DNA of 32,000 nucleotides from Erysipelotrichaceae bacterium (GCA_963663995.1 OY760660.1:1890001-1922000); one strand, 5' to 3'. Positions 13,334 to 30,184 are shown, counted from the first letter of the stretch. Numbers and translations are program-made. The notes: generated from the letters alone by a model not told the origin.

Positions 13334-13356
13334 AGACCTTCGGGTCTTTATTTTTC
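13332..13356. terminator. bidirectional rho-independent terminator
   Basis: AAAGACC-TTCG-GGTCTTT hairpin followed by ATTTTT and preceded by an A run. It lies between convergent genes. Confidence 0.75.
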
Positions 13357-13905
13357 ATAGATTAGTTCTGCTTTTGAGACAAAATAATTCGTATCATCAT
13401 AGTCTAACTTTAGTTTTTTAAATTCTGATATCATTTCTTCGATTGTTTCGAATTCATAGTCATAGTTCGGGGACGTATTTTCCATTTCTATAAATAAGAA
13501 CGCATGATTAACCCATTGCGTAATTAAACTAAACTTACCATTATAGTAAACTCGACATTGATCAAAGACATTAATCAATACTTTATAATTTAAACTTTCA
13601 AAATATTTAATGGTATTATCACGGTTATAAATCGTGAAATCAAAATCTTTTTGATCAAGAATATCTCCGTTATCTGAATAGTCTTTTTCTTTATAGATTA
13701 TTTTATAGGAATCTCTGTTTTTTCGTAAGATGAGACAACGTTTTAAAATATCTTGAAACTTCATGATATTTGTATTAACTGTATTTGAAATAAAGTAAAT
13801 ATCATCCAAATCAAAATCTTCAATTTGTTTGAAATGTAGTTTTTTTAATTGTTTATCTAAATGGTCTAAATCACCATTCATTCGGACTGTAATCTCATTT
13901 TTCAT
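13348..13905 (-). CDS. CYTH-like domain protein (putative; degenerate ExExK)
   Basis: Start moved to ATG 13905 (MKNEITVRM...), because the upstream 17 codons of the tracked ORF are the terminator of the preceding gene. EITVR..DDIYF..LILRK..YKEK..FLFIEME spacing resembles the CYTH/CyaB-like beta-barrel pattern. Confidence 0.4.
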   Translation of the reverse strand: MKNEITVRMNGDLDHLDKQLKKLHFKQIEDFDLDDIYFISNTVNTNIMKFQDILKRCLILRKNRDSYKIIYKEKDYSDNGDILDQKDFDFTIYNRDNTIKYFESLNYKVLINVFDQCRVYYNGKFSLITQWVNHAFLFIEMENTSPNYDYEFETIEEMISEFKKLKLDYDDTNYFVSKAELIYEK

Positions 13906-13924
13906 AATCAATAGTATTATTATA

Positions 13925-13956
13925 AAACAAAAAAAGTGAAAACATGGCGTTTTCAC
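13925..13956 (-). terminator. rho-independent terminator after the GGDEF/HD-GYP gene
   Basis: Minus strand reads GTGAAAAC-GCCAT-GTTTTCAC followed by TTTTTTTGTTTT, starting 2 nt after the TAA at 13958-13960. Confidence 0.8.
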
Positions 13957-13957
13957 T

Positions 13958-16507
13958 TTAAGCTCTCAGTTCAATATCGAAGGACTGGGCACGAGTTGGC
14001 TCAATCATAACTTCACCTTGATTGATTAAATTAATAAAGATATCAGCGAGTTTTGGATCAAACTGTGCTCCAGCATTACGTCTAATTTCTTCTATCGCAT
14101 ATTCAACCGTATGATTGGTTTTATAATGACGATCAGATGTTATCGCATCAAAGGCATCAGCTAAACAAATACATCTTGCCCCAAATGGAATATTTTCTGC
14201 ACATAACTTTCTAGGATAACCGCGTCCATCATAGCGTTCATGATGCCCAATAACGGCTGGGATAACTTTACTAAAGGTTGGTAAGTATTTAATGATGGTG
14301 ACAGATAGATCAACATGTCGTTTCATAACTTCAAATTCTTCATTCGTTAAACGATCTGTCTTTGTTAAGATGTGCTCAGGAATACCAATTTTGCCGATAT
14401 CATGAAGCAAGGATGCTTGACGGATAATTTCAATTTCACTCTCACTAGCACCTGCTGCATGAGCAATTGCAGTCGCATATTTGGCAACCCTTTGTGAATG
14501 ACCAAATGTAATATGATCTTTCGCATCAATTGTTGCGGTTAATGCATAAATTGTCGCCCATTGATTTTCACTTAAATCAAATTCAGCGACGGGAGTTTCA
14601 GCTACTTCATTTGTATAAATGGTTGTTCGATTACGACCATTACGTTTTGAATAGATTAAAGCAGTATTTGCATTTTTTAATAAACTGACGGCTTCACTAC
14701 AGGCACTTGGATAGACACATAAGCCTACAGATACAGAAATATAGCGTTCAGTTTCATTGATGTTAGAGACAGATAAACCTTCAATTTGAGTACGTATCTT
14801 TTCAGCTAAATCATAACTTTGTTTAGTATCAGCACCATTCAGAAGGACACCAAAAATATCACCGGCATATCTAAAGACTAAGGTTGACTCATGAACACTA
14901 CGTTTAATTCGATCAGCGACTTTTGTTAGTACGATATCACCTGCAAGATGACCATAAATATCGTTATAAACAGTTAAGGAATCAATACCAAATAGAGTTA
15001 AAGATAAACTTAATGGTTTAGACTCAACTTGTTTGTTGAGAGCTTCCATGAAATATCGATGATTATAAGTTTGGGTCAATGAATCAGTAATAGCCTCAGT
15101 TTGCGTTCTTTCGAAAAGCAAAGCATTGGTGAGGGCCATTGCCGCAGTTGAACACATTAATTCAATAGATTCAATATGGTTAAAGGCTTCAATAGAACGA
15201 TGATCATTATGACATAAAAGCATGAATCCAATTAAATCATGGTGAACTTTAAGAGGGATCGCAACTTCGAATAATAATTCATTTAAAGAATTAAAATCTT
15301 CTTCCCACATGGATTTAAAGAGTGGATGTTGATAGAGGTCTTCGCCACGAATTGGCGTATCATCATTTTCAAACCACTTTGCAAAGGCGTGATTTAAACT
15401 AAATTGTAATCTCTTTCGCTCTAGTTTTTTAGATGATGCATAACATTCATATTTTTCCTGAACAGTATTTTTCAAGTAAAGATGAATCTTACCGTGTTCT
15501 AAAATGGATTGAGACACTCTAATCAATTCTTCACTAATTTCTTTAGCATTTAAATTATTCGCAACAGATTGAGTGAAATTATGGATTTCTGCTTCTCTTT
15601 TGATTTCATCTTTATAAAAGAATTTATTAATAAGTTTATGTAAAATCATAAAAATAGGTTGGAAAATTAGAATACCGATGACAATAGCTACAACTAACAT
15701 GATGGATTCATCAATACCTGTATTTAATGATTGAAAGAAAGCCCATGCGTTATTCAAAAGAACAGATGTGCCAATCGATAATAATACTAAAGCCACACTT
15801 AAAGTTAATGCTTTCGTAATTACAATCTTTAATTCAATAATACGATTTGCGTAAACAGCTTTCATCATTATAAGCACAGCAATCGACCCAGCAAAGAAGT
15901 CAAAAGGATATTTACCAATAACCGGAACTAGATTAATCCCCATCCCAACAAAGATAATAAATAATGAAATGACAATTTGTTTTAAACCTTTATTGATTGA
16001 AATGGATGATTTAATATGATTACGAGCGATGAGGAAGCACGCCATTAATTGAAGGAATATAATGCCATATGAAACATATGCTCCCCACGTTAATGTGTAG
16101 TTAAGTTGTGTATATGGAGCGACTGATAATGTAACCATTTCAGCTTCTGTCGTCACAAAACCTGTAAAAATTAGTCCGAGAATGAAAACATCTAAAAGCC
16201 CCCAAAGGATTAATGGTAACCAACGTTTTCTCTCGATATATACATTTAAGAAAATATAACTAGCATAGGGTAGAACAGCACTACCTAAAATCATCATATG
16301 ATTATAAAAGAGAGTACCAGGGTAAAAATTAAGTTTCATCAAAAGTGATGATGCTGTCCAAATAGCCATTGAGAAAACAACAAAAGTAAAAGATTTTATG
16401 GTGGCATCTTTCTTCGATAAAACCAGAATGCCTAATAAGCTTAAACTTAAAAGGAATGCAATTGAAGGGAGTCCCCAGTAAAATAGTGTTAAACCATAAT
16501 CACTCAT
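13958..16507 (-). CDS. membrane sensor protein: N-terminal polytopic (7TM-type) domain, GAF-like linker, degenerate GGDEF (AGDIF), HD-GYP c-di-GMP phosphodiesterase domain
   Basis: 849 aa. About 290 aa of TM helices. GGDEF-fold blocks (DSLTQTYNHRYF, GIDSLTVYNDIYGHLAGD), but the signature reads RYAGDIFG. HD-GYP signature is intact (HSQRVA, LLHDIGKIGIP, HHERYDGRGYP). ATGA overlap with the upstream GH3 gene. Confidence 0.9.
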   Translation of the reverse strand: MSDYGLTLFYWGLPSIAFLLSLSLLGILVLSKKDATIKSFTFVVFSMAIWTASSLLMKLNFYPGTLFYNHMMILGSAVLPYASYIFLNVYIERKRWLPLILWGLLDVFILGLIFTGFVTTEAEMVTLSVAPYTQLNYTLTWGAYVSYGIIFLQLMACFLIARNHIKSSISINKGLKQIVISLFIIFVGMGINLVPVIGKYPFDFFAGSIAVLIMMKAVYANRIIELKIVITKALTLSVALVLLSIGTSVLLNNAWAFFQSLNTGIDESIMLVVAIVIGILIFQPIFMILHKLINKFFYKDEIKREAEIHNFTQSVANNLNAKEISEELIRVSQSILEHGKIHLYLKNTVQEKYECYASSKKLERKRLQFSLNHAFAKWFENDDTPIRGEDLYQHPLFKSMWEEDFNSLNELLFEVAIPLKVHHDLIGFMLLCHNDHRSIEAFNHIESIELMCSTAAMALTNALLFERTQTEAITDSLTQTYNHRYFMEALNKQVESKPLSLSLTLFGIDSLTVYNDIYGHLAGDIVLTKVADRIKRSVHESTLVFRYAGDIFGVLLNGADTKQSYDLAEKIRTQIEGLSVSNINETERYISVSVGLCVYPSACSEAVSLLKNANTALIYSKRNGRNRTTIYTNEVAETPVAEFDLSENQWATIYALTATIDAKDHITFGHSQRVAKYATAIAHAAGASESEIEIIRQASLLHDIGKIGIPEHILTKTDRLTNEEFEVMKRHVDLSVTIIKYLPTFSKVIPAVIGHHERYDGRGYPRKLCAENIPFGARCICLADAFDAITSDRHYKTNHTVEYAIEEIRRNAGAQFDPKLADIFINLINQGEVMIEPTRAQSFDIELRA

Positions 16508-18135
16508 GAAACTTTCCTCCCAAAGGCACGTTTAAGTATTTCTACCACATCAAAGTGATTTGGATTTACGCGCGCAACTTTGTGATGAATCGTTTTTTGA
16601 TAGGCACTAATGGTCCCAAAAGGTAAAACAGTAATTGTTAAAGGATCAATTCCTAACATTTTCTTTAAATTTTTAAAATCTTGATCAACATAAGCAAAAT
16701 TTAATTCTAATTGAGCTTGAATTAAATCAACTCGATCCCATCCTAAATCATCTTGTTTGTGATTAAGCTCAATCGCTAGATTCAAATAAGGACGTTGTTG
16801 ATCATCGTAACACTTACGTGCAAACCAATTGGATATTGGTAAACGTGATAATTTAATAACTTCGGTAAGTGTTTCTTCAGTAATACGGGTAAAACCAGCT
16901 AAGTCTACGACTGGATCAACTCGATCAATATATCTTAGATGTGGCAAAGCAATGCCATCTTTTGTTCGTTCTAATACTTCACATTTAAAGACATCACCAA
17001 CACGATATCTGGCAAAAGCACCGCCTTTAAAAGTAGTGATAACTAACTCATAAGATTCATCTTCTTTTAGTTCATCCATTAAATATGTTTTTGGTTGATA
17101 ATTAGGATCTTCCAAATTTGCATAAAATTCATGCATCGGAATGAACTCATAGAAACAAATATGTGGTAGGAAGATTAGACCGTCTTTCTCCCATGATTCC
17201 ACACCAATGCATGTAGGTTCTGTACCACCAAACACCTCTAGTGGAACAACACCCCAGTAATCTGCAATTCTCTTTTTGAAATGCAGAGTATCTGTACCAA
17301 TACAAACAAAGCCTTTTAAATCAAATACATCTTTTGGGTAAATTGGTTGCTTAGAAAAATGACTCTTGATTTTTGCATGAGCAAATTTTGATATTTGAGA
17401 CAATTTAAAATCTAATAAATTTGCACTACCAGAAGTTCCTTCACTGAATTGTTCAGACATTCTAACAATGACAGAACTTAAACCATAGAATAAGTCTAAT
17501 CCTTGTTGAATCCCCATTTTAAAGCCTTCTTTATTTCTTTGTGAGAAGCTCATTTTTAAGCCTTCATCAATAGGTGGAAAATAGTTAACACTAAAATCAT
17601 CTCGAATGACATCAGGTAATAGTCCTGTTAAATATGGAAGAGGAGCCATACCATTAAGGAAATTCATTCCAGGTTTTAAATCAAAGTGCCCTTTACGACG
17701 TGAGGATGCTAACATAATGCACGTAAAAGCAGAATCACGGTAATTGCGAATCATTGCTTCGGTATATGGCGCAAGTTTGATTGGTGCTTTACCACCAACC
17801 CAAGTTGTTTCAATCCAAATGGCTGCTGGTGCAGGTAACATATTTTCTTGTTTACTCAAGAGAATATCAGCGTAATCTTCATAAGATGTTAATGGTACTT
17901 TTGTTCTAAATTCACTCATCGAATTTATTTGCTGACCATTAAATAATTTTTGTCCTAATTCACATTTATTAAAGAGTTGAATTTGTTCTAAAAGAAGTTG
18001 TTCTTGAATAGCCATAAACTCAGAAACTGATAAATCTAAAAAGCCACAATAACGATTCCATAGTTCTTTGTGGTTTTTACGTTTCAGATGTTCATCAAAA
18101 CTTAAGTGCGATGTACTTAAGATGGATTCTGACAT
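16504..18135 (-). CDS. GH3 family protein (acyl-acid amido synthetase-like adenylating enzyme)
   Basis: 543 aa. The N-terminal FRTKVPLTSYEDYADIL block and overall length/architecture are typical of bacterial GH3 'auxin-responsive promoter' family proteins. Confidence 0.75.
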   Translation of the reverse strand: MSESILSTSHLSFDEHLKRKNHKELWNRYCGFLDLSVSEFMAIQEQLLLEQIQLFNKCELGQKLFNGQQINSMSEFRTKVPLTSYEDYADILLSKQENMLPAPAAIWIETTWVGGKAPIKLAPYTEAMIRNYRDSAFTCIMLASSRRKGHFDLKPGMNFLNGMAPLPYLTGLLPDVIRDDFSVNYFPPIDEGLKMSFSQRNKEGFKMGIQQGLDLFYGLSSVIVRMSEQFSEGTSGSANLLDFKLSQISKFAHAKIKSHFSKQPIYPKDVFDLKGFVCIGTDTLHFKKRIADYWGVVPLEVFGGTEPTCIGVESWEKDGLIFLPHICFYEFIPMHEFYANLEDPNYQPKTYLMDELKEDESYELVITTFKGGAFARYRVGDVFKCEVLERTKDGIALPHLRYIDRVDPVVDLAGFTRITEETLTEVIKLSRLPISNWFARKCYDDQQRPYLNLAIELNHKQDDLGWDRVDLIQAQLELNFAYVDQDFKNLKKMLGIDPLTITVLPFGTISAYQKTIHHKVARVNPNHFDVVEILKRAFGRKVS

Positions 18136-18668
18136 GAACTTGTCTCCTTTAACTTTATAAATAGAAATGGTACTTTTTCTTGATAATCAAGATAACCAGG
18201 TATCGATTGCGGAAAAATTACTGTATCTTGTATCGCCACATGAATTAAATCAAAGATTGACCAAATAATTGCGGTTAATAAAATTAGGAAACTGCCAGAT
18301 GCTAAGGTAAAACCAAGCCCCATGAGAATAAATCCCCAAACGCCAGGATGACGACATAGTGAATATATACCATGATCAACTAATTTTACTTCATCTAACT
18401 TCGTGTATGTATCTGCATAAGGTAGGGCAAAAAACAAAGCATAAATTTGTTCAATTGCACCAATGACAACTAATGAATAGAAAAGATAATTGGAAGAAAA
18501 TGTACCATATAGATCTTTTTGAATGAAAATCATTGTCAATGAAACGATAAGTAGAATGATTGAAAAAGGGAATAAAGCATTCAAAATATGATGCCATTTA
18601 TAAATTTTATTCAAGTCAAAAAGAGTTAGTAAAATGAATGATGTACAACCAATTACGATCCAGTTCAT
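18117..18668 (-). CDS. ICMT/PEMT-like membrane methyltransferase family protein
   Basis: Polytopic. GIYSLCRHPGVWGFILMGLG resembles the RHPxY-type motif of isoprenylcysteine carboxyl / phospholipid methyltransferase-like proteins. ATG 18668 is preferred over TTG 18692 (GGGGAAGGG SD-like upstream). Confidence 0.6.
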   Translation of the reverse strand: MNWIVIGCTSFILLTLFDLNKIYKWHHILNALFPFSIILLIVSLTMIFIQKDLYGTFSSNYLFYSLVVIGAIEQIYALFFALPYADTYTKLDEVKLVDHGIYSLCRHPGVWGFILMGLGFTLASGSFLILLTAIIWSIFDLIHVAIQDTVIFPQSIPGYLDYQEKVPFLFIKLKETSSCQNPS

Positions 18669-18693
18669 AAAACCCTTCCCCTGGGTCAACAAA

Positions 18694-18795
18694 CAAAAAA
18701 CCGACCCAAAAACGTGGCCGGTTACGCTACTAGCTCATACAGGGGATAAGCGTCCAAATTTACCCTGTAATCAAGGCTTCCGATATATACTTGTA
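18694..18795 (-). promoter_or_regulatory. candidate c-di-GMP class II riboswitch with intrinsic-terminator expression platform
   Basis: Minus-strand RNA: CGGAAGCCUUGAUUACAGGGUAAAUUUGGACGCUUAUCCCCUGUAUGAGCUAGUAGCGUAACCGGCCACGUUUUUGGGUCGGUUUUUU. It shares the AAAUU(U)GG, GAGyUAGUAG and AACCGrCC blocks of the class II aptamer as I recall it. Two helices show compensatory changes (ACAGGG/CCCUGU and ACGC/GCGU). ACCGGCC also forms the 5' arm of a terminator (pairs with GGGUCGGU, then U6). Confidence 0.65.
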
Positions 18796-18800
18796 GAGCC

Positions 18801-18829
18801 ATTATAGAATCAAAAAATGCCCACTACAA
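18801..18829 (-). promoter_or_regulatory. sigma-A-type promoter of the riboswitch-led operon
   Basis: Minus strand reads TTGTAG, a 17-nt spacer, then TATAAT, placed immediately upstream of the aptamer. Confidence 0.5.
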
Positions 18830-19017
18830 GCCTTTTTAAGTCGAAAATCGCATATTATTGAAAAGTTTTCATAAAGATTATATGAATGTGAATATATATA
18901 GACATATTCATAATAAAAGGGTAAATATTTATGAAGAATTATAAATCATAAAACTTATTTGTAAGATAATAAGACTATCCTATAAAATAAACTAAAGAAG
19001 TAAAGGAAGAAAAATTA

Positions 19018-19872
19018 ATGAAATTATGTGTATTTATTGAAAATAATGAAAAACAAATAGGAATTAAAACGGACAAAGGAATTATTCACCTTAGAAAAAC
19101 GGCTGAGTTAGCTCAAATCAATTTTCCACAATCAATAGAAGATATTATTGAAAAAGGTTTTGATGAAATAAAAGAGCTTTGTAATAAAGAAGTCGTTTTA
19201 TGTGATGAGAGTGAAATTACTTTTGCTCCAGTTCTATCAAATCCAGAAAAGATACTTTGTGTTGGTTTAAATTATCAAAGTCATCAAGAAGAAACGAAAA
19301 TGGCTAAACAAGATTATCCAACCATCTTTTCCAAATTTAATAATTCACTCGCAGCTCATAATGAAGACATTAAAACGATAGCCTTTGCCTCACAATATGA
19401 TTATGAAGTAGAGCTAGTTATCGTTATGGAAAGAGAATGCCGTGATGTAACTGAAGCCAATGCTCTTGATTATGTCTTTGGCTATACTATCGGAAACGAT
19501 GTCAGTGCACGTGATCTACAAACTCGTACGAGTCAATGGTTGATGGGAAAAACTTTTGATGGCTTTGCGCCAATTGGACCATATCTTGTCACAAGTGATG
19601 AAATTGATCCAAGTAATTTAAAGATCACAACGAAAGTTAATGGTGAAATTAGACAAGATGGTTATACAAAAGACATGATATTTGATTGTAAGTATATTGT
19701 TAGCTATTTATCAAAATATATGACTTTAAAACCAGGAGATATTATTTTCACTGGTACACCAAGTGGTGTTATTCTTGGCTATCCTGAAGATAAAAAAATA
19801 TGGTTAAAAGCAGGAGATGTCATGGAAGTCAGTATCGAAAATATCGGTACATTAAGGAATCGATTAATCTAA
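19018..19872 (+). CDS. fumarylacetoacetate hydrolase (FAH) family protein
   Basis: 284 aa. VGLNYQSH, YEVELVIVM, GYTIGNDVSARDLQ and GDIIFTGTPSGV blocks are typical of the FAH / 2-keto-4-pentenoate hydratase family. Confidence 0.9.
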   Translation: MKLCVFIENNEKQIGIKTDKGIIHLRKTAELAQINFPQSIEDIIEKGFDEIKELCNKEVVLCDESEITFAPVLSNPEKILCVGLNYQSHQEETKMAKQDYPTIFSKFNNSLAAHNEDIKTIAFASQYDYEVELVIVMERECRDVTEANALDYVFGYTIGNDVSARDLQTRTSQWLMGKTFDGFAPIGPYLVTSDEIDPSNLKITTKVNGEIRQDGYTKDMIFDCKYIVSYLSKYMTLKPGDIIFTGTPSGVILGYPEDKKIWLKAGDVMEVSIENIGTLRNRLI

Positions 19873-19980: not shown

Positions 19981-20373
19981 ATGGGAAGACCAAAAGGAAG
20001 CACAGGAAAAAAATTACATAAATGGACAGTTGAAGAAAAATTAGAGATCGTTAATAAACATTTAATAGATCACATGAGTTATGAGCAAATTAAGATTAAC
20101 TATCAAGTTGGTTTAGCACAAATACATAACTGGGTAAAACAATATCACGAGAACGGAGAAGAAGGACTTCTCCCAAAAGAAAATAAACGTAATATAATGG
20201 CTCATCTATATCGAAAGAAAAACCTAAACAAACTTGAGAAATTAGAACTTGAGAACTTCAAATTAAAACTAGAAGTTGAACGATTAAAAAAAGGTTACAC
20301 AGTGAAAGGAGTTGGTTCAAACAAGGAATACGTTCCTACATCCAAGACGAATATCAAATCATCAAAGAATTAA
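19981..20373 (+). CDS. IS3-family transposase OrfA (HTH + leucine-zipper region)
   Basis: 130 aa. N-terminal HTH (WTVEEKLEIV...GLAQIHNWVKQY) and a heptad-Leu region (LEKLELENFKLKLEVERLKK). The slippery run lies near the 3' part. Confidence 0.85.
   Translation: MGRPKGSTGKKLHKWTVEEKLEIVNKHLIDHMSYEQIKINYQVGLAQIHNWVKQYHENGEEGLLPKENKRNIMAHLYRKKNLNKLEKLELENFKLKLEVERLKKGYTVKGVGSNKEYVPTSKTNIKSSKN
20286..20293 (+). promoter_or_regulatory. programmed -1 ribosomal frameshift site (A AAA AAA G)
   Basis: The run of seven A then G is read in the orfA frame as TTA AAA AAA GGT. Frame -1 is open from here to 21227 and encodes the DDE domain. Confidence 0.7.
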
Positions 20374-21227
20374 GTAATGAGTATTCAGTTGGATTTTTAT
20401 GTGGAGTATTAGATGTCAGTCGTAGTGGTTATTATAAATGGTTAAAACGTTTAGACACACTCAATCGGCATGAACAGAATAGAGAAGATCTTATTAAACT
20501 TATCGAAGAGATACATACAGAACATCCATCATACGGTTATCACGATATAACGGCAGTCATCACTACGCGTACAGGTTGGAAATTATCTGCATTAACGGTA
20601 CATAAAGCCTGTAAAGCGATTGGCGTTAAATCAGAAACTAAGCATTACAAGTGGAAGAAACCAGGAGAAGAACACGTCACTTATAAGAACGTCGTTTCAG
20701 GAAACTGGGAGGTATCTCGACCCTTAGAAATCGTGACGAGCGATATGACTGTACTCACCCATAGAGGAAAACAATATGAGTGGACATTCATCGTTGATGT
20801 GTTCAATAACTCCATCATCGCATCATCACTTAGTTCAAGACGAAATGATAATTCTACCTATTACCATTGTCTTGATCAACTCATTCACATCATCAAAAAA
20901 GAAGAATATTCCGAACCCATCATTTTCCACAGTGACCAAGGTGCAGTTTATTCTTCAAAAGGCTTCCAAGAAGCTCACAAAAATTATAACATTATTCGAT
21001 CTATGTCGCGCGTAGGCACACCAACTGATAACGCAGTTATAGAATCACTTAATGGTTGGATCAAAGCTGAAATAAAATGTGATTATAATCTTAAAGAATG
21101 GGATTCACTTGAAACTTTCATTGATCAATACATAGAGTTCTTTAATAATGAAAGACCAGCTTACAAACTCCAATATAAAACCCCTAACCAATTCTTAATT
21201 GATCAAGGGTTCACTGTTTTTTATTAA
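20292..21227 (+). CDS. IS3-family transposase OrfB part (DDE integrase-like catalytic domain; expressed as OrfAB fusion)
   Basis: My manual translation of frame 3 is open from 20283 onward: ...RLHSERSWFKQGIRSYIQDEYQIIKELSNEYSVGFLCGVLDVSRSGYYKWLKR... It then continues into the tracked ORF. DDE triad candidates are TSDMT, HSDQG and ESLNGW. Confidence 0.85.
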   Translation, partial: RLHSERSWFKQGIRSYIQDEYQIIKELSNEYSVGFLCGVLDVSRSGYYKWLKRLDTLNRHEQNREDLIKLIEEIHTEHPSYGYHDITAVITTRTGWKLSALTVHKACKAIGVKSETKHYKWKKPGEEHVTYKNVVSGNWEVSRPLEIVTSDMTVLTHRGKQYEWTFIVDVFNNSIIASSLSSRRNDNSTYYHCLDQLIHIIKKEEYSEPIIFHSDQGAVYSSKGFQEAHKNYNIIRSMSRVGTPTDNAVIESLNGWIKAEIKCDYNLKEWDSLETFIDQYIEFFNNERPAYKLQYKTPNQFLIDQGFTVFY

Positions 21228-21272: not shown

Positions 21273-22316
21273 TTATTTGAATAATTCAGGATCGAAGGCG
21301 TGACGGACAGCTTCTTCTTTACTAATAATATTTGATTCAAGTAATTTCCTTAAACTTTCGTCCATCGTGATCATGCCATCATCTTTGGAAACTCGGATGG
21401 TCGCATTTAATTGATGTGTTTTACCTTCACGTATTTGATTACGTATGGCGGTGTTGTTGACCATTACTTCAAAGGCAGGGTGAATTTGTTGATCAAGAGT
21501 TGGGACGAGTTGTTGTGATATAACAGTTTGAAGAACCATTGCTAGTTGGATTCGAACTTGGTGTTGTTGTTCAGATGGGAAGACATCAACGATTCGATCA
21601 ATGGTATTACTTGCCCCTAATGTATGAAGAGTTGAGAAAACTAAGTGGCCAGTTTCTGCGGCCGTTAGGGCTAAAGAAATTGTTTCTAAATCACGCATTT
21701 CTCCAACAAATAATACGTCTGGAGATTGTCTTAATGCAGATCTTAAAGCGATGGCTGTGCTTTCACAGTCTGTTCCAATTTCTCTTTGTGTGACAACTGA
21801 TTGATTATGTTTAAATAAGAATTCAATCGGATCATCAATCGTAATAATATGACCTTTTCTTGATTTATTGATTTCAGTTAGAAGCATAGCCATTGTTGTC
21901 GATTTACCACAACCTGCTGGACCACTAACAATCACTAAACCTTTGCTTAATTTCGCAAAACGCATAACATTTTCAGGTACATGCATAATACTAGGCTCAG
22001 GAATATCGAAACGCACAATTCTTAGAACAGCTGCTAAACTCGAACGTTGTGTATAAACATTCGCTCTAAATCTTGCGACATGAGGTATAGAGAATGAAAA
22101 GTCATCATCTCCATTTGTATTCACTTTATCCATAGAACGATTAGCTACTTGATAAATTGTCTTAATCAATTCATAGGTATCATCTGGCATTAAGCGAGCA
22201 CCATCTAATTGTTTGAGCTCGTTTTTTATTTTTAAAGCTAAACTAGTACCAGCAACAATAAAAAGATCGGATGCTCCCAGCAACATAGCTTTTTCAATTA
22301 GTTCATTTAAATTCAT
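21273..22316 (-). CDS. pilT: PilT-family type IV filament ATPase (retraction-class hexameric ATPase)
   Basis: 347 aa, collinear with PilT. GASDLFIVAG, Walker A GPAGCGKST, DDPIEF, GEMRDLETISLALTAAETGHLVFSTLHT and a PilT-type AIRNQIRE motif. It lacks the long N-terminal domains of PilB/GspE. Confidence 0.9.
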   Translation of the reverse strand: MNLNELIEKAMLLGASDLFIVAGTSLALKIKNELKQLDGARLMPDDTYELIKTIYQVANRSMDKVNTNGDDDFSFSIPHVARFRANVYTQRSSLAAVLRIVRFDIPEPSIMHVPENVMRFAKLSKGLVIVSGPAGCGKSTTMAMLLTEINKSRKGHIITIDDPIEFLFKHNQSVVTQREIGTDCESTAIALRSALRQSPDVLFVGEMRDLETISLALTAAETGHLVFSTLHTLGASNTIDRIVDVFPSEQQHQVRIQLAMVLQTVISQQLVPTLDQQIHPAFEVMVNNTAIRNQIREGKTHQLNATIRVSKDDGMITMDESLRKLLESNIISKEEAVRHAFDPELFK

Positions 22317-23835: not shown

Positions 23836-24858
23836 TTATCCTAAGGTAGACATCACATTTAATAAGGGTAAAATCATTGAGAACACAATCGCAAAAACCA
23901 TTGCAGTCAAACTAGTGATTAACCAAGGTTCAATTCTATTTAAGCTAGAGTTTAATTGATTTTGTGCTCTTTGATTAAGTAAATAAGATAAATCATCAAG
24001 AGCATTTTCAAGTTGTCCAGCTTTTGCGGCAATGTTTAACGTACTTAAATCTATTGATTCATAAAGGGTATTGTTTAACAAGAGTTCATATAAACCTTCA
24101 GAAGGATCAAGTTTAGCTTTAGCTTTGTTGAGTTTTTCTTCAAATTTAACACTTGTATCATTCGCTTTGACCATACTAAGTGCACTTCGATTATCAATAC
24201 CGCCAGATAAAGCTATATACGCCATTGATGTATAATAAGCAACTTGTGAAGTTTCATATGCTTTTGGGAATAATCTTAATAATCGAGTATCCCAAGAAGG
24301 TTGACTTTCTGGTTTTTTTTGATGTTTGATTTCTCCTAGGATAAACCAAAGAGCGATTAAAGCATAGCTAGTCATTAAAGCTATACTAAAGCCTTTTAAA
24401 GCATATAAGAAAGCACGTAAGCTTGCACTTTGAGCGATACCAAGTTGAGTAAAGAGATTTTGAAATATTGGTAGAATGGTGAAAGACATTAAAGTTAAAA
24501 TTATCCCAAAGATCGCTAATAAAATTAATGGCAGGCTCAAGATTTCTTTTAAGAACTGTTGAAGTTCAGATTGACGAGTAAAATGTTTCGCCATTTGTTT
24601 AAAGAGTTTTTCTTCCTGTCCTACTTTTTCAGCAATTACTAATGCATCAATGAAATAGTGTGGGAAAGCAGCATCTTGTTTGAAAACATAACTAAGACTT
24701 GGATTTTCACTAAAATGTGTTTGCCAAGATTTATAGTCATAGATTTCACTTTTTTCAAGTAAACTTAAGCCTTTATCTAGACTAGTACCTGAAGCATACA
24801 AATAACTAAGTTGTTGACATAAAGAGGCAAGTTCTTGTGCAGTATATTGTTTTCTCAT
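23836..24858 (-). CDS. GspF/PilC/ComGB-family type IV filament platform protein
   Basis: 340 aa with two T2SSF-like repeats (cytoplasmic helical bundle then TM). N-terminus ELASLCQQLSYLYASGTSLDKGLSLL; C-terminal TM ILPLLNVMSTLG. The size is ComGB-like. Confidence 0.8.
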   Translation of the reverse strand: MRKQYTAQELASLCQQLSYLYASGTSLDKGLSLLEKSEIYDYKSWQTHFSENPSLSYVFKQDAAFPHYFIDALVIAEKVGQEEKLFKQMAKHFTRQSELQQFLKEILSLPLILLAIFGIILTLMSFTILPIFQNLFTQLGIAQSASLRAFLYALKGFSIALMTSYALIALWFILGEIKHQKKPESQPSWDTRLLRLFPKAYETSQVAYYTSMAYIALSGGIDNRSALSMVKANDTSVKFEEKLNKAKAKLDPSEGLYELLLNNTLYESIDLSTLNIAAKAGQLENALDDLSYLLNQRAQNQLNSSLNRIEPWLITSLTAMVFAIVFSMILPLLNVMSTLG

Positions 24859-24866
24859 AAATCTCC

Positions 24867-25805
24867 TTAATAACGATCTTGGTCTTGATATGACCCATCA
24901 TATTCGCCCATTGAATCAAAAGTTGGATCAACTCTTTTCCATTCATCACTTGCAAAATAAATACTTGGATTTATCCATCCTTGATCATCTAAATAAACTT
25001 CAACCCATGCATGATAACCAACATCCGTCATACCCGTGATAATTCGAGTTGGTATATGTTGTGCTCTAAGCATAGCCGTCATTAATGCAGCATAATCAAA
25101 ACAAATTCCTTTTTGTTGGATATATGTTTCGTCAATGATAGGAAGAATGAATGTTGACTTGGCTACTTCAGCTTTATCGTAATCATAAGTTATATTTTCA
25201 GTGATATAAGTGTATATTTCATAGACTCTTAATAAATCACTATTAGCGTCCTGCGTTAAATTGAATGATTCTAATACAGCTTTTGTATTCGCATCATAGT
25301 CAACCATTTGATTGGGATAAATGTAAGGACTATTTTCATCTTCTAAGTTAACAGTGATATTGGTAGAGGCAAGAATGCTGTAACTTGTACCTTCAATGTT
25401 TTTAAGCGCTCGAATGGTATAGTCGCCATTGCCCAAATGCATAGGAACAATCACATATTCATTCGCATGAAGATCATAAGTATAAGTTTGGTCATTTAGA
25501 ATAACTTGAACTTTTTGTTTGGAAGTACTATCACTCGTTTTGATACTAACATATCCAAAATTCGCATTTGAATAATCAATGCTTATCCCGTTGTTTTCAA
25601 AAAGGGAAGTTCCAGGTTGAGTAGGTAAAAGTAAGTCAGAAAGTTTATACGCTTCAGAGGGTGTTCCCTCTTCTGGATAAGCGCTTGTACTTGCTTGACT
25701 TGGACTTGTTCTTTCTTGAATTGTAGCAGGCTTATCACTACTGCATGCACTTAAGAAAATAACAATGCAGAATAGAATAAGTATATGGCTTATGGGTTTA
25801 TTCAT
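24867..25805 (-). CDS. transglutaminase-like (Cys-His-Asp core) lipoprotein
   Basis: Lipobox FLSAC. The C-terminal core GICFDYAALMTAMLRAQHIPTRIITG...GYHAWVEVYLDDQGWINP...VDPT matches the transglutaminase-core/cysteine-protease fold. Confidence 0.85.
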   Translation of the reverse strand: MNKPISHILILFCIVIFLSACSSDKPATIQERTSPSQASTSAYPEEGTPSEAYKLSDLLLPTQPGTSLFENNGISIDYSNANFGYVSIKTSDSTSKQKVQVILNDQTYTYDLHANEYVIVPMHLGNGDYTIRALKNIEGTSYSILASTNITVNLEDENSPYIYPNQMVDYDANTKAVLESFNLTQDANSDLLRVYEIYTYITENITYDYDKAEVAKSTFILPIIDETYIQQKGICFDYAALMTAMLRAQHIPTRIITGMTDVGYHAWVEVYLDDQGWINPSIYFASDEWKRVDPTFDSMGEYDGSYQDQDRY

Positions 25806-25873: not shown

Positions 25874-28800
25874 TTATAGTTCAATAATTGTATTGTATTC
25901 TTCGTCTTGTTCAGCAGGGATTAGAACAGTGTGAACTAAATGACCATGAAGCACGAAGTTAACGGTTAGATTACCTAAGTGTTTTGCGAGACGTTTGTAG
26001 ATTGTTACATCAATTTTGGCAAGATCTACTAAGTTTTTATCATTAAGATCAACAATGAATACAGTTTGATCATCATCAGGTTTTGATAGACGACGTCGTA
26101 ATGTTTTTTCTGTTCCATCCTTAGTGATTAATGTGTATCTAATATTAGGTCTAATAAAGGCTAGAAGAAGTGGAAGTAATCCAAGTAACCAGTATAACCA
26201 ACTAAAGTCCATTGGTAATGCGGCTAGAGGCGTTTCCTCTGGTTCTTCAACCAAGATAACACCTTGTGTCACATCAATCACAACTGAAGCAGTATTTGAA
26301 TCAAGTTCACCATCATTGGCGATGAAGCTAAAGCTATCATTACCAACGAAGCCATCGTTAGGCGTATAAGTAAATGAACCATCATCATTGAAGACTAATG
26401 TACCATTCGAGACGGATGATACTAAAGCAAATGTTAAGGCATCTCCATCAGCATCACTTGCACTTGCTTGACCACTAATAGCTGTTTCAAATTCAGTTGA
26501 GTATGTTCCTGCATTAGCAACTGGAGCTGTATTCAAGGCAGCTAGAGGAGTAGGTGTAGGAACGACTGTAACTGTAACTGGAGGTGTAGTAGGAGGAGTG
26601 GTTGGAGGTGTAACTGGAGGAGCAGGAGGAGCAGTAACAGTAATCGTAACTGTAACTACATTAGAATCATCTTCACCATCATTGGCATGATAAGTAAAGG
26701 TATCTGTTCCAACAAATCCAGCAGTAGGTGTATAAGTAAATGAACCATCAGCGCCTAATACTAAGGCACCATTGACAACATTAACATTTAGAACAGCTGT
26801 TAATGAATCACCTTCAACATCAGTATCATTAGCTAAGACACCAGCAGCAGCGATACTTAAGCTTGCAGTATTAACGACTGTATAAGCTTCAGCAACGGCT
26901 ACAGGGGCATCATTCACTGGAGTTACTGTAATATAAATTGTAGCAACTTCAGAAGTATCAACACCATCACTTACGGTGTAAGTGAATTGATCGTCCCCAA
27001 CGTAATTAGCGTTAGGTGTATAAGTAATTGCTGATCCTGTTCCACTTAGAACACCATTGGTAGGAGCAGTTGTGAGGAATGTTAATTCATCTTCATCAAC
27101 GTCTTCACCAAAGAGGGTAATAAGAAGTGCTGTATCTTCAGGAGTTGTTAACTCTTGACCTTCAGCTACAGGAACATCATTGATAGGATTAACAGTGATT
27201 TCTACAGTTGCGCTAGCACTAATGTTTCCATCAGTAATGCTGTAATCGAAACTATCTAAACCATTGAAATTAGCAGCAGGTGTATAAGTGAAAGAACCAT
27301 CAATATTCATGGATACACTACCACCATTAACACTTGTTGCATCATATGCACTAATTTCTAATGCATCACCATCAACGTCTGAATCATTGTCTATGACTCC
27401 ATTAACAGCCAATACAACCAGAGGCGTATCTTCATCAGTTGAATATTCATCATCAACAGCAACAGGAGCATCATTAATGTTTGTTACATTAATGGTAATC
27501 GTAGCTGCTACTGAACTTAGAACACCATCAAATGTTGTAAAGGTGAATGAATCTTGACCGACAAAATCAGTGTTTGGAGTATAAGTAATTTGATCATCAT
27601 TTAGAATGCTTAAAGTACCATTTGTAGGTTGAGAAGCGATAGCGAATGTAATGCTATCCCCATCAATATCTGAACCAGTTAAGGTAATGAGTAAAGCTGT
27701 TTCTTCAGCTGTATCTACAGTTTGATCATTAGCAGTAGGAGCATCATTTATTGGGTTAACAGCGATTTCAACAATTGCTATATCCGTTAAACTACCATCA
27801 CTAACTGTGTATGTGAATGTATCACTATCTAATCCCACTCCATTAAAGTTTGCAGCAGGTGTATATGTAAATGTACCATCTAAAGCCATCGATACAGTAC
27901 CACCGTTGGTTGTTGTAGTGTCATAAGCACTTACAAATAAACTATCACTATTAGCATCAGTGTCATTGGCTAGAACACTATTAGCAATAAGTACTGTTAA
28001 TGGAGTATCTTCATCAGTAGTATATTCATCATCAACTGCAACTGGAGCAGTATTATTAACTGAAATATAAACAGTAGCTATGTTGGAGTTACTTGTTCCA
28101 TCATAAGCCATATATGTGAAATGGTCTGTACCATTGAAACCTGAATTTGAAGTATAAGTGAATGATCCATCAGCATTTAATGATAATGTACCATTTGAAA
28201 CATTATCAACTAATATAGCAGATAGAGAACTACCTTCAACATCAGTATCATTTCCTAAAATACCAGGAGCTGCTATTGATAGTTCAACAAGTTGAGCAGC
28301 AGTATAATTATCATCTGTGGCAACAGGAGCATCATTGACTGCATTAATAGTAATATTGACAGTCGCTGTATCACTTCCACCATTTCCATCACTGATTGTA
28401 TAAGTATAAGAATCAGTACCATTAAAATCAGAAGCAGGTGTAAAAGTAATTGTATTATCAGCATTAATTACTACTGTACCGTTTGATCCTTGTGTTACTG
28501 AAGAGATTGTTAAAACATCACCATCAATATCAGAATCATTAGCTAATACATTAGTTGTAACTGCAGTATCTTCATCAGTAAAATCTGAATCATCTACAGC
28601 AACAGGAGCATCGTTAATCGGTGTAACTGTAATGTTTACAGTACCAGTAACTGATGTTGTACCATCGCTTAATGTGTATGTAAATGAATCATTCCCATTA
28701 AAATCATCAAAAGGTTCATAACTAAATGATCCGTCAGATCCTAAATAAGTTAGGTCACCATGACTTGGATTAGTACCAGCACTTATTGTTAAAGGATCAC

Positions 28801-29885: not shown

Positions 29886-29992
29886 TTGAAAATAAAATGA
29901 CCGGTTTTCTGCTAAGTGCAGTTGACCGGTCATAGATTACTCTTTAGACGCCTAACTTTGTGCCCCAAGTTTTCACTTGGTTTACCTTTTGA
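29886..29992 (-). promoter_or_regulatory. candidate c-di-GMP class I (GEMM-I) riboswitch, promoter-distal (gene-proximal) copy, with its own terminator
   Basis: Minus-strand RNA: AAAAGGUAAACCAAGUGAAAACUUGGGGCACAAAGUUAGGCGUCUAAAGAGUAAUCUAUGACCGGUCAACUGCACUUAGCAGAAAACCGGUCAUUUUAUUUU. This parallels the Vc2-type core GGCAAACC-stem-GAAA-stem-GGGACGCAAAGCC. The terminator is ATGACCGG...CCGGTCAT plus a U run, followed by the SD and ATG 29869. Confidence 0.62.
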
Positions 29993-30065
29993 CAAAGACG
30001 ATTTACTTTTTAATACCTTTTCTCAAATAATAATCTCCTTTAGAGGAATTAAGACATTCTTTTTT

Positions 30066-30172
30066 AATAAAAAATGACCAGTCCTCTGCTATGTGCAGTT
30101 GACCGGTCATAGATTACTCTTTAGACGCCTAACTTTGTGCCCCAAGCTTTCACTTGGTTTACCATTTTACAT
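30066..30172 (-). promoter_or_regulatory. candidate c-di-GMP class I (GEMM-I) riboswitch, promoter-proximal copy, with its own terminator
   Basis: Segment 30071-30163 differs from 29894-29986 at 5 of 93 positions. It has the same aptamer core (GGUAAACCAAGUGAAAGCUUGGGGCACAAAGUU...). The terminator is AUGACCGGUC...GACUGGUCAU followed by UUUUUU. Confidence 0.62.
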
Positions 30173-30184
30173 ATTGGTGTTTAC

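Follow-up and report, generated by a model that had tools for sequence, protein, structure and literature searches.

A conserved Bacillota gene trio that may link an uncharacterised lipid-like metabolite to c-di-GMP signalling

Organization of the operon

The window, a 32,000-nt stretch of DNA from an Erysipelotrichaceae bacterium (GCA_963663995.1, OY760660.1:1890001-1922000), carries on its minus strand three overlapping genes that are preceded by a riboswitch leader and closed by an intrinsic terminator. Gene 1 (18668..18117; 183 aa counted from its ATG) encodes a membrane methyltransferase, gene 2 (18135..16504; 543 aa) a GH3 acyl-acid amido synthetase, and gene 3 (16507..13958; 849 aa) a 7TM-GAF-GGDEF-HD-GYP protein. 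The longest ORF for gene 1 starts at a TTG at 18692 rather than at the ATG at 18668, upstream of which lies a ribosome-binding site (GGGGAAGGG). The translational coupling claimed in a preliminary description of the locus was borne out by the 19-nt overlap of genes 1 and 2, taken from their coordinates, and by the ATGA overlap of genes 2 and 3, read directly from the sequence. So was its strong 3' terminator, identified at 13933..13959 (minus strand) by a terminator scan and direct reading as a hairpin with a 12-bp stem, a 3-nt loop and a T-run that begins directly after the TAA stop of gene 3. All of the features in that description (ORFs, couplings, riboswitch leader and terminator) are present in the sequence, and its family assignments for the three products (PEMT/ICMT-type, GH3 and GGDEF/HD-GYP) were right. 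The parts of its interpretation that are unsupported or in need of correction are the novelty of bacterial GH3 function, the co-occurrence of the riboswitch with the genes elsewhere, the derivatisation of carboxyl groups by both enzymes, and a third protein that is solely a phosphodiesterase.

The three gene products

The product of gene 1 is an integral-membrane methyltransferase of the PEMT/ICMT fold (class VI) with ~5 TM helices. It passed the Pfam model for PEMT (PF04191; 32.7 bits, E 1.1e-7, residues 80-144, cut-off 25), which its relatives carry as a precomputed assignment, and failed that for ICMT (PF04140; 17.7 bits, cut-off 24), yet its closest solved relatives are ICMTs. A profile search of the PDB matched Ma-ICMT (4a2n, E 1.8e-5) and also the ICMT 5v7p, and the top Foldseek matches of its AF2 model (pLDDT 85.8) were 4a2n, 5vg9 and 5v7p, the ICMTs being the best solved fold match (prob 1.0, TM 0.46). 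Gene 1 shares with class VI enzymes (4a2n, the Tribolium ICMT 5v7p, PF04191) a polytopic helical fold, a C-terminal SAM-binding region and the RHP and GY..Y motifs; RHPGV and QD...F....GY.DY...VPFL are conserved within its subfamily and align to the motifs of Ma-ICMT. Compared with the class VI SAM motifs (RHPxY...G and EE..L...FG..Y..Y), the subfamily has V/L for Y and QD for EE, and because of the changes from EE to QD and from RHPxY to RHPGV, methyltransferase activity has to be assumed; the protein is also small. These matches do not establish the proposal that a carboxyl group is the target of both this enzyme and the GH3 protein, as the model passed is that of lipid N-methylation while the nearest structures are ICMTs, and either O- or N-methylation is therefore possible.

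Gene 2 is by family an adenylate-forming GH3 acyl-acid amido synthetase, with its catalysis predicted from sequence. It cleared the Pfam GH3 cut-offs (GH3_M 53.7 bits and the GH3 N-terminal domain 29.5 bits, both above 23.6; PF03321 / PF23571), so that the suggested check on whether the 543-aa protein is GH3 by HMM came out in favor of the assignment, with no match to GH3_C in the window's protein. Its profile found plant GH3s in the PDB (E about 4e-8), and its AF2 model (pLDDT 83.4) has the two-domain ANL/GH3 fold, matching AtGH3.15 (E 4e-18) and JAR1 (TM 0.66, the highest for a plant GH3) in Foldseek searches in which PaaK ligases scored equally. The nucleotide-binding motifs of gene 2 are ETTWVGGKAPIK, FGGTE and RYRVGD, and the core residues of the family versions (TTW.GG..P.K, FGGTE and RYR.GD) are invariant in 23 homologues; compared by eye with the plant and OlsH motifs (PMC12493201), they agree with (S/T)(S/T)G..G..K, (Y/F)G.(S/T)E and YR.GD. 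The plant enzymes (JAR1, GH3.5, GH3.12 and GH3.15) thus share with gene 2 Pfam GH3, the two-domain fold (TM <=0.66) and the three motifs, but at ~15% identity and a length of about 575-610 aa, and its context, unlike theirs, is bacterial, operonic and membrane-associated. A 685-aa homologue (P0037) was considered as a possible GH3-methyltransferase fusion, which it is not; its C-terminal domain is duplicated.

Gene 3 consists of HisKA_7TM (aa 1-~300), GAF (~300-465), a degenerate GGDEF domain (472-627) and HD-GYP (660-820). The last two were assigned by Pfam (GGDEF 113.6 bits; HD_5, i.e., HD-GYP, 125 bits). HisKA_7TM (PF16927) was matched when residues 1-300 were scanned alone (33.2 bits, cut-off 28.6), was not reported from scans of the whole protein or residues 1-465, and is matched by 16/24 family members. 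The GAF assignment came from the family profile: 17/24 members match Pfam GAF, and the best solved match is the Persephonella marina GAF-HD-GYP phosphodiesterase PmGH (PDB 4mcw, E 4e-12). PmGH shares with gene 3 the GAF-to-HD-GYP arrangement and the HD / HHExxDGxxGYP motifs, but is soluble and has neither the 7TM nor the GGDEF domain. A homologue search with the 7TM-GAF region gave 2 matches, its candidates having been swamped by TM-rich words. The HD-GYP domain has the HD dyad and HHExxDGxxGYP signature (LLHDIGKIG and GHHERYDGRGYPR), with the H, D, HHE, DG and GYP residues invariant in 64/64 homologues, and gene 3 is accordingly a predicted c-di-GMP phosphodiesterase, as had been proposed. 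It is, however, not a phosphodiesterase alone, as it has the 7TM, GAF and GGDEF domains in addition, and an intact GGEEF is found in 26/64 aligned family members. In the window and its three close relatives the motif is degenerate (RYAGDIF); [S/G]GKEF is the form of the Lachnospiraceae/Oscillospiraceae-type clade, and degenerate forms are those of the Erysipelotrichales.

Conservation of the trio in the Bacillota

The trio was found in the same order and on the same strand at 75/76 loci with enough upstream flank, and gene 3 follows the GH3 gene at 78/78 loci with downstream flank; one locus (L057) has the GH3 and phosphodiesterase genes without the methyltransferase. Its hosts are Bacillota, including Erysipelotrichales, Desulfotomaculaceae, Syntrophomonadaceae, Lachnospiraceae and Oscillospiraceae, and GTDB species genomes yielded at least 570 confirmed relatives. 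At most junctions the spacing is -4, -1 or another small overlap, and across Bacillota orders the gene order, strand and overlaps persist at 44-66% GH3 identity, amid flanking genes that all differ. The question of whether the genes are neighbours in any relatives was in this way answered in the affirmative for many Bacillota families, and the trio is more than a chance neighbourhood. Pairwise-identity correlations among the three proteins are high (0.79-0.94), which we treat as co-inheritance only and not as evidence of interaction.

BLAST clustering of the neighbours at 80 loci revealed two additions. In 13 of the 80, of the Lachnospiraceae/Oscillospiraceae type, a DegV fatty-acid-binding gene is translationally coupled to the cassette, overlapping the methyltransferase start, a finding that lends support to the earlier suggestion that a lipid or a small molecule is conjugated; in 13 loci of the Syntrophomonadaceae/Pelotomaculum type a class-I SAM methyltransferase is inserted. 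Beyond these and generic ABC ATPases there were no recurrent neighbours in the 80 loci, nor was an OlsI-like alpha/beta-hydrolase O-acyltransferase among them, as judged by the clustering and not by an OlsI model. In a literature search, no paper joined GH3 to c-di-GMP, HD-GYP or DegV in such a role, and the trio is described in none of the papers searched.

The c-di-GMP-II riboswitch leader

The operon promoter has a TATAAT -10 box (18801..18806, minus strand) that is identical in the window and the three relatives aligned with it and lies ~12 nt upstream of the aptamer. By eye, its -35 element is weak (TTGTAG, 17-nt spacer), and as this matches at only 3/6 positions the promoter was not listed in a promoter scan. 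The riboswitch claimed for this leader is real and of class II (RF01786), with its aptamer at 18707..18789 (minus strand; 49.5 bits, E 6.6e-10, full model 1-84). It is 4 bits short of the Rfam gathering score of 53.5 bits and was therefore overlooked by the whole-window gathering scan and caught by a local E-value scan; of the orthologous leaders, L082 and L083 pass (54.6 bits) and L081 scores 52.5 bits. Three pairs of the P3 stem are changed on both sides in L082, compensatory changes whose statistics are weak at n=4 sequences (four leaders exist, and in the MAFFT alignment L082 is off by one column). The pseudoknot complement was found by eye, loop GACGCU pairing with AGCGU, and GG with CC, in the conserved 3' segment.

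The expression platform is an intrinsic terminator at 18693..18723 (minus strand), comprising the hairpin AACCGGCC.AC/GU.GGGUCGGUU (18723-18699) and a U-run (18698-18693); 18686-18730 folds at -13.2 kcal/mol with z -2.4. Its 5' arm (18723-18713) sits within the 3' part of the aptamer, the hairpin and T-run are kept in the relatives, and riboswitch and overlapping terminator are conserved in 4/4 close relatives of the window. Such an arrangement is consistent with ON logic. At low c-di-GMP the leader terminator (18723-18693) would form and transcription would stop, whereas at high c-di-GMP the aptamer pseudoknot and P1 would sequester AACCGGCC, so that ligand binding would block the terminator and the three overlapping genes would be transcribed. 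In C. difficile, all four c-di-GMP riboswitches of class II turn expression on (PMC6366702). Like the window's, these switches (e.g., Cdi-2-4 upstream of pilA1) have an aptamer of class II and, behind it, an intrinsic terminator that competes with the ligand-bound fold, and the same ON response is predicted here. The known ones of C. difficile govern pilin or adhesin genes, whereas that of the window governs a c-di-GMP phosphodiesterase and two enzymes.

The description of the operon as c-di-GMP-induced therefore fits the leader, but only in the window's lineage. Rfam gathering scans showed no c-di-GMP riboswitch in 22 diverse trio loci, nhmmer with a single aptamer sequence had no matches in all loci, and a class II / class I core regex had essentially none upstream of the methyltransferase gene. 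On these grounds we no longer regard the riboswitch as part of the ancestral cassette. Its expected co-occurrence with the trio elsewhere does not, in these scans, reach beyond the close relatives of the window, so that c-di-GMP induction, as predicted here, is an addition particular to one lineage; the universal c-di-GMP link of the cassette is the HD-GYP protein itself.

A putative lipid-amide pathway tied to c-di-GMP breakdown

A tentative reading, and the one that we favor while holding it with less than even confidence, is that the conserved cassette couples the breakdown of c-di-GMP to a lipid-amide pathway, in the window's lineage under a c-di-GMP-II ON riboswitch. The GH3 enzyme would adenylate a carboxylic acid and couple it to an amino acid or amine; the acid is most likely a free fatty acid, and the product would, by analogy with OlsH, be an N-acyl-amino-acid-type lipid. 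The methyltransferase would then methylate this lipid in the membrane, at a carboxylate (ICMT-like, giving a methyl ester) or at an amine (PEMT-like). The HD-GYP domain of gene 3 would hydrolyse c-di-GMP and so exert negative feedback on the operon's own inducer, and its 7TM-GAF sensor would most likely read the lipid product or a precursor. Such lipid sensing would account for the phosphodiesterase gene staying joined to two enzyme genes, and it is this invariant linkage that suggests it.

The nearest precedent is the OlsH-OlsG-OlsI operon of Singulisphaera acidiphila (PMC12493201). The statement that bacterial GH3 proteins lack an established function is now outdated, since OlsH, a bacterial GH3 described in 2025, uses ATP/Mg to join free fatty acid to ornithine, giving N-acyl-ornithine, and its operon also encodes an N-methyltransferase, OlsG (PMC12493201). 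Both systems have a GH3-type amido synthetase, ATP-dependent in OlsH and predicted to be so here, with conserved nucleotide-binding motifs and a known or probable lipid methyltransferase beside it; papers call OlsG kin of phospholipid N-methyltransferases, and a literature search found none connecting it with PEMT. The use of free fatty acids by OlsH is in line with the DegV link of the cassette. The DegV or class-I methyltransferase additions in some clades, together with the OlsH precedent, point to a methylated N-acyl-amino-acid-type lipid, and with no conserved OlsI-like O-acyltransferase nearby the product would therefore be of the lyso type. A lipid substrate is also favored by the polytopic nature of gene 1, whose nearest solved relatives use lipid-anchored substrates. 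Against the lipid-amide reading, the GH3 model fits plant GH3s no better than CoA ligases of the aromatic-acid PaaK type, DegV is present at only 13/80 loci, and the match of gene 2 to the OlsH equivalog model NF052613 is negligible (20.3 bits against a cut-off of 620, over the N-terminal 120 residues only). The QD and RHPGV changes in gene 1 and its failure of the ICMT model, the L057 locus and the sub-threshold aptamer score count against the reading as well. The cassette also differs from the Ols operon in lacking an OlsI-like alpha/beta-hydrolase, in belonging to a different phylum (Bacillota) without reported aminolipids, and in always being joined to the 7TM-GAF-GGDEF-HD-GYP gene, for which the Ols operon has no counterpart.

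To our knowledge, there are few Gram-positive c-di-GMP phosphodiesterases with a known input signal, and a 7TM-GAF phosphodiesterase genetically linked to a pair of enzymes whose probable product is a methylated lipid amide offers a concrete candidate ligand. The lipid-amide pathway would carry bacterial GH3 chemistry into the Bacillota, where aminolipids are undescribed, and could reveal a synthesis route for N-acyl amino acids or their methyl esters. With the cassette in at least 570 species-level genomes, those of gut Lachnospiraceae/Oscillospiraceae and syntrophic Syntrophomonadaceae included, any function would apply widely. In the window's lineage, a c-di-GMP riboswitch over a c-di-GMP-degrading enzyme would be direct RNA-level negative feedback; riboswitch control of c-di-GMP metabolic genes was called rare in a 2019 review.

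Alternative explanations

The first alternative, which we consider unlikely, is bulk membrane remodelling without sensing, in which the product of genes 1 and 2 would be a structural aminolipid of the sessile, high-c-di-GMP state, comparable to methylated ornithine lipid, with the phosphodiesterase co-expressed for feedback only. The OlsH/OlsG precedent is indeed a structural membrane lipid (PMC12493201, PMC12971839), and a neighbouring operon with tandem c-di-GMP-I riboswitches encodes an adhesin and pilus genes, so that c-di-GMP drives a surface-remodelling programme here. A structural lipid, however, gives no reason for the linkage to a 7TM-GAF-HD-GYP gene at 75/76 loci, most of them without any c-di-GMP riboswitch, the neighbour clustering at 80 loci showed no conserved second acyltransferase for a diacyl lipid, and aminolipids are undescribed in Bacillota (PMC12971839).

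We give rather little credence to a non-lipid conjugate, in which the GH3 enzyme would activate an aromatic or short acid (e.g., phenylacetate or an indole acid, as plant GH3/PaaK do) and the cassette would make or inactivate a soluble signal. Such a role would suit the ranking of PaaK-type phenylacetate ligases beside plant GH3s in the fold search and the use of IAA, JA and benzoates by the latter, but not an integral-membrane partner whose nearest solved relatives have lipid-anchored substrates, a recurrent accessory gene of a fatty-acid-binding family, or the use of C14-C18 fatty acids by the sole characterised bacterial GH3. No better placed, and an elaboration of the favored lipid-amide pathway, is a self-contained lipid-signal circuit, in which the GH3 and ICMT-like enzymes would produce an N-acyl amino acid methyl ester, neutral and membrane-permeant (AHL-like, of the NAME type), with the 7TM-GAF region as its receptor. 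NAME-type lipids, AHL-like compounds with biosynthetic genes that are not known, would be the expected outcome of GH3 amide synthesis followed by carboxyl O-methylation, an analogy alone; the phylum is another than that of the cassette. If true, cell-density or membrane-borne lipid information would set c-di-GMP hydrolysis directly in hundreds of anaerobic Bacillota species, and in the window's lineage c-di-GMP would turn the circuit on via the riboswitch.

Modification of a protein or peptide, with the GH3 and ICMT-like enzymes acting on a C-terminal or side-chain carboxylate, possibly of the sensor itself, in the way that ICMT modifies prenylated proteins, was among the options of the preliminary description and takes its appeal from the ICMTs as closest solved relatives of gene 1. 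It is highly improbable: the neighbourhood has no conserved gene for a substrate peptide, prenyltransferase or CaaX protease, the ICMT Pfam model failed, the DegV linkage favors fatty acids, and no GH3 found here (PDB matches, OlsH) has a protein substrate. An operon of convenience, with enzymes unrelated to c-di-GMP, is hardly credible either, for although the genes are linked by synteny rather than experiment and the riboswitch is confined to one lineage, that very synteny, with order, strand and overlaps kept at such GH3 divergence between differing flanks, already disfavors it.

A conserved three-gene operon

A coupled three-gene operon at 13958-18668, as claimed in the preliminary description, was confirmed at these coordinates. 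On the minus strand of the window, three ORFs follow one another head to tail, namely gene 1 (18668..18117, 183 aa from its ATG), gene 2 (18135..16504, 543 aa) and gene 3 (16507..13958, 849 aa); genes 1 and 2 overlap by 19 nt, genes 2 and 3 share an ATGA that was read directly from the sequence, and a 12-bp hairpin followed by a T-run begins where gene 3 ends, at its stop codon. The longest ORF for gene 1 opens at a TTG (18692), and its homologues begin MNWI at the ATG.

That these genes might also be neighbors in relatives was borne out on a broad scale. A scan with a GH3 alignment of one genome per GTDB species confirmed at least 570 relatives, and synteny was examined in the best 80 of these (44-66% identity), using phmmer with the window proteins against the locus ORFs. 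The methyltransferase gene was directly upstream of the GH3 gene in 75 of the 80, and the 7TM-GAF-GGDEF-HD-GYP gene was directly downstream in every locus that had flanking sequence. Cassette junctions were mostly -4 or -1, and the genes flanking the cassette were not conserved among the best 80 loci. Cultivable organisms that carry the cassette include Anoxynatronum, Pelotomaculum propionicicum and Lachnoclostridium sp. An14. Four of the five loci with no upstream methyltransferase are contig ends, and L057 (1-7617) is the only locus of the 80 with ample upstream flank, a GH3 gene and a phosphodiesterase gene in which a methyltransferase gene was not detected, tblastn included. A 3.4-kb contig labelled Fermentimonas sp. 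(L034) carries a GH3 and phosphodiesterase fragment of a Bacillota-type cassette in a Bacteroidota-labelled MAG, which probably reflects misbinning and not horizontal transfer.

Two accessory genes were found, each in 13 loci. The first encodes a DegV-family fatty-acid-binding protein (FakB-like; Pfam 187-230 bits), lies immediately upstream of the methyltransferase gene and overlaps its start, and is thereby translationally coupled to the cassette (L037, L046, L058, L061, L067-L070, L072, L073 and L078-L080, all Lachnospiraceae/Oscillospiraceae-type). The second encodes a Methyltransf_11 protein, a class-I SAM methyltransferase about 212 aa long, and sits inside the cassette in Syntrophomonadaceae/Pelotomaculum-type loci, either upstream of gene 1 (L024, L026, L027, L031), between genes 1 and 2 (L033, L035, L039-L041, L043, L059, L062) or, in the truncated L028, upstream of GH3; it supplies these lineages with a further methylation step.

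The cassette proteins

Gene 1 passed the Pfam PEMT model (32.7 bits) and did not pass ICMT (17.7 bits). When a profile of 22 homologues was searched against solved structures, the only meaningful relatives were Ma-ICMT (4a2n, E 1.8e-5) and Tribolium ICMT, and the AF2 model (pLDDT 85.8, about five TM helices) had 4a2n, 5vg9 and 5v7p within its best four Foldseek matches, at probabilities of 0.97-1.0. The subfamily conserves G.Y..CRHPGV and QD...F....GY.DY...VPFL, motifs that align to the SAM-binding motifs of ICMT but with V in place of Y and QD in place of EE. Gene 1 is thus predicted to be a class VI membrane methyltransferase; judged by sequence, its acceptor atom may be O or N.

Gene 2 clears the cut-offs of both Pfam models for GH3, its profile matches plant GH3 structures (E about 4e-8), and its fold matches plant GH3 with a TM of up to 0.66, PaaK ligases being similar in score. 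All three nucleotide-binding motifs are kept invariant. It was rejected as an equivalog of OlsH, the bacterial GH3 protein of Singulisphaera acidiphila (20 bits against a cut-off of 620). One GH3 homologue of 685 aa (P0037) has a duplicated C-terminal GH3 domain in which residues about 395-540 are repeated; the duplication may be genuine or may have arisen in assembly.

In gene 3 the domain order is HisKA_7TM, GAF, GGDEF and HD-GYP, where the GAF call is family-level evidence and the best PDB match is the GAF domain of the HD-GYP enzyme PmGH (4mcw). An alignment of 64 homologues revealed no variation in the HD and HHExxDGxGYP residues, while the GGDEF motif differs by clade: it is GGEEF in Desulfotomaculaceae/Syntrophomonadaceae-type loci, [S/G]GKEF in the Lachnospiraceae/Oscillospiraceae-type loci, including the very 13 that carry DegV, and degenerate in the Erysipelotrichales (AGDIF in the window). 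Because of this difference, the conserved output of gene 3 is predicted to be phosphodiesterase activity. A search of the 7TM-GAF region against 1.84 billion representatives returned 676 representative relatives, 221 of them at E <= 1e-10; most were about 830-860 aa long, as is gene 3, and the others about 620-720 or about 960-1150 aa, and owing to this spread in length the sensor module is likely also paired with other output architectures.

A riboswitch in one lineage

A whole-window Rfam scan at the gathering threshold produced two tandem c-di-GMP-I aptamers and a tRNA, roughly 11 kb away, and nothing else. When 18500-19100 was scanned locally, it gave a full-length match to the c-di-GMP-II aptamer (18707-18789, minus strand; E 6.6e-10), its 49.5 bits falling below the gathering score of 53.5. 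The same leader is present in all of the close relatives recovered by exact-protein look-up, L081 to L083, whose GH3 proteins are 81-87% identical to that of the window, and L084, whose gene 1 is 67% identical. It scored 52.5 bits in L081 and 54.6 bits in L082 and L083, and was recognised by alignment in L084; the P3 stem has three compensatory pairs in L082, and a TATAAT just upstream of the aptamer is invariant in the alignment.

Directly after the aptamer, and overlapping its end, is a terminator (18723-18693, minus strand; -13.2 kcal/mol) consisting of the hairpin AACCGGCC.AC/GU.GGGUCGGUU and then UUUUUU. The conserved AACCGGCC supplies the 5' arm of this hairpin and, in the Rfam alignment, makes up the end of the pseudoknot region plus the P1 3' strand. 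Since AACCGGCC belongs to both, the ligand-bound aptamer and the terminator would be mutually exclusive, and therefore the leader is predicted to be an ON switch. The four class II c-di-GMP riboswitches of C. difficile are all ON (PMC6366702). When the whole leader is folded to its minimum free energy, the P3 3' strand, CCCCUG, is paired to CAGGGG in the ribosome-binding region (18676-18745, minus strand), a hint of extra translational control, or possibly a chance match, as L082 does not keep the complementarity.

Outside these close relatives the riboswitch was not seen with the trio: Rfam at the gathering threshold found no c-di-GMP riboswitch in 22 diverse cassette loci, nor did core-motif regexes when applied to the sequence upstream of gene 1 in 75 loci. 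The cassette is old, and the riboswitch joined it recently and in a single lineage.

A candidate lipid pathway

The preliminary statement that no function is established for bacterial GH3 proteins is outdated, for the GH3-like OlsH converts free C14-C18 fatty acids, with ATP/Mg and ornithine, to N-acyl-ornithine (PMC12493201). Its operon also carries genes for OlsG, a lipid N-methyltransferase, and for OlsI, an O-acyltransferase, and the authors of that study expect other N-acyl amino acids from homologues elsewhere (PMC12493201). OlsH is UniProt L0DAW6, and OlsG is Sinac_1600. Our literature search found GH3 not paired with c-di-GMP, HD-GYP or DegV in the sense of this cassette. In the best-supported reading, the GH3 enzyme would join an amino acid or amine to a fatty acid, the membrane methyltransferase would methylate the resulting lipid, and the dedicated 7TM-GAF-HD-GYP protein would degrade c-di-GMP; in the window lineage c-di-GMP would switch on the whole unit, giving negative feedback. 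It is an attractive, if speculative, chemical logic that an ICMT-like enzyme might act on an N-acyl amino acid. For ICMT itself, a lipid-anchored cysteine that is N-acetylated and has its carboxylate free is the minimal substrate.

One rival is a structural aminolipid with no sensing, for which the ornithine-lipid operon is a ready parallel; the linkage of phosphodiesterase to enzymes is unbroken with or without the riboswitch, which argues that the gene 3 sensor reads the product or precursor of genes 1 and 2. An aromatic, non-lipid conjugate would suit the plant GH3 and PaaK matches of gene 2, and suits less well the fatty-acid-binding partner in the DegV loci. Modification of a protein would suit the ICMTs as the nearest solved relatives of gene 1, and sits less easily with fatty acids as the substrates of OlsH. 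Mere co-location of the three genes is hard to square with a trio kept intact amid changing flanks. The preliminary interpretation was supported in part: the family assignments, the coupling, the riboswitch and the terminator stood, and the absence of a GH3 function did not. The cassette is assembled from known parts and is widely conserved, and we found no description of it.

Neighborhood of the cassette

Just past the operon terminator is an ORF of about 186-202 aa (13348-13956, minus strand, likely true start near 13905) with its own TATAAT, no Pfam match and, at 30 bits in NCBIfam, a weak match below cut-off to class IV adenylate cyclase CyaB/CYTH. L081 and L084 have this ORF and L082 lacks it, so it lies outside the conserved cassette. 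On the other side, a FAA-hydrolase gene diverges from the cassette and is separated by an IS3-type element (19981-21227, plus strand; an HTH_28/HTH_Tnp_1 ORF at 19981-20373, then an rve integrase-core ORF at 20733-21227) from a second c-di-GMP-controlled operon; no transposase was among the genes called in the corresponding interval of the syntenic L081, L082 and L084. This second operon, on the same strand as the cassette and about 11 kb from it, lies downstream of the tandem c-di-GMP-I aptamers (29914-29996 and 30091-30173, minus strand; 61.6 and 62.0 bits). Its genes (25874-29869, 24867-25805, 23836-24858 and 21273-22316, minus strand) belong to an adhesin and pilus-like set, in which a surface protein of 1331 aa with 11 Big_9/cadherin-like repeats is followed by a transglutaminase-like protein, T2SSF, small pilin-sized ORFs and a T2SSE ATPase.
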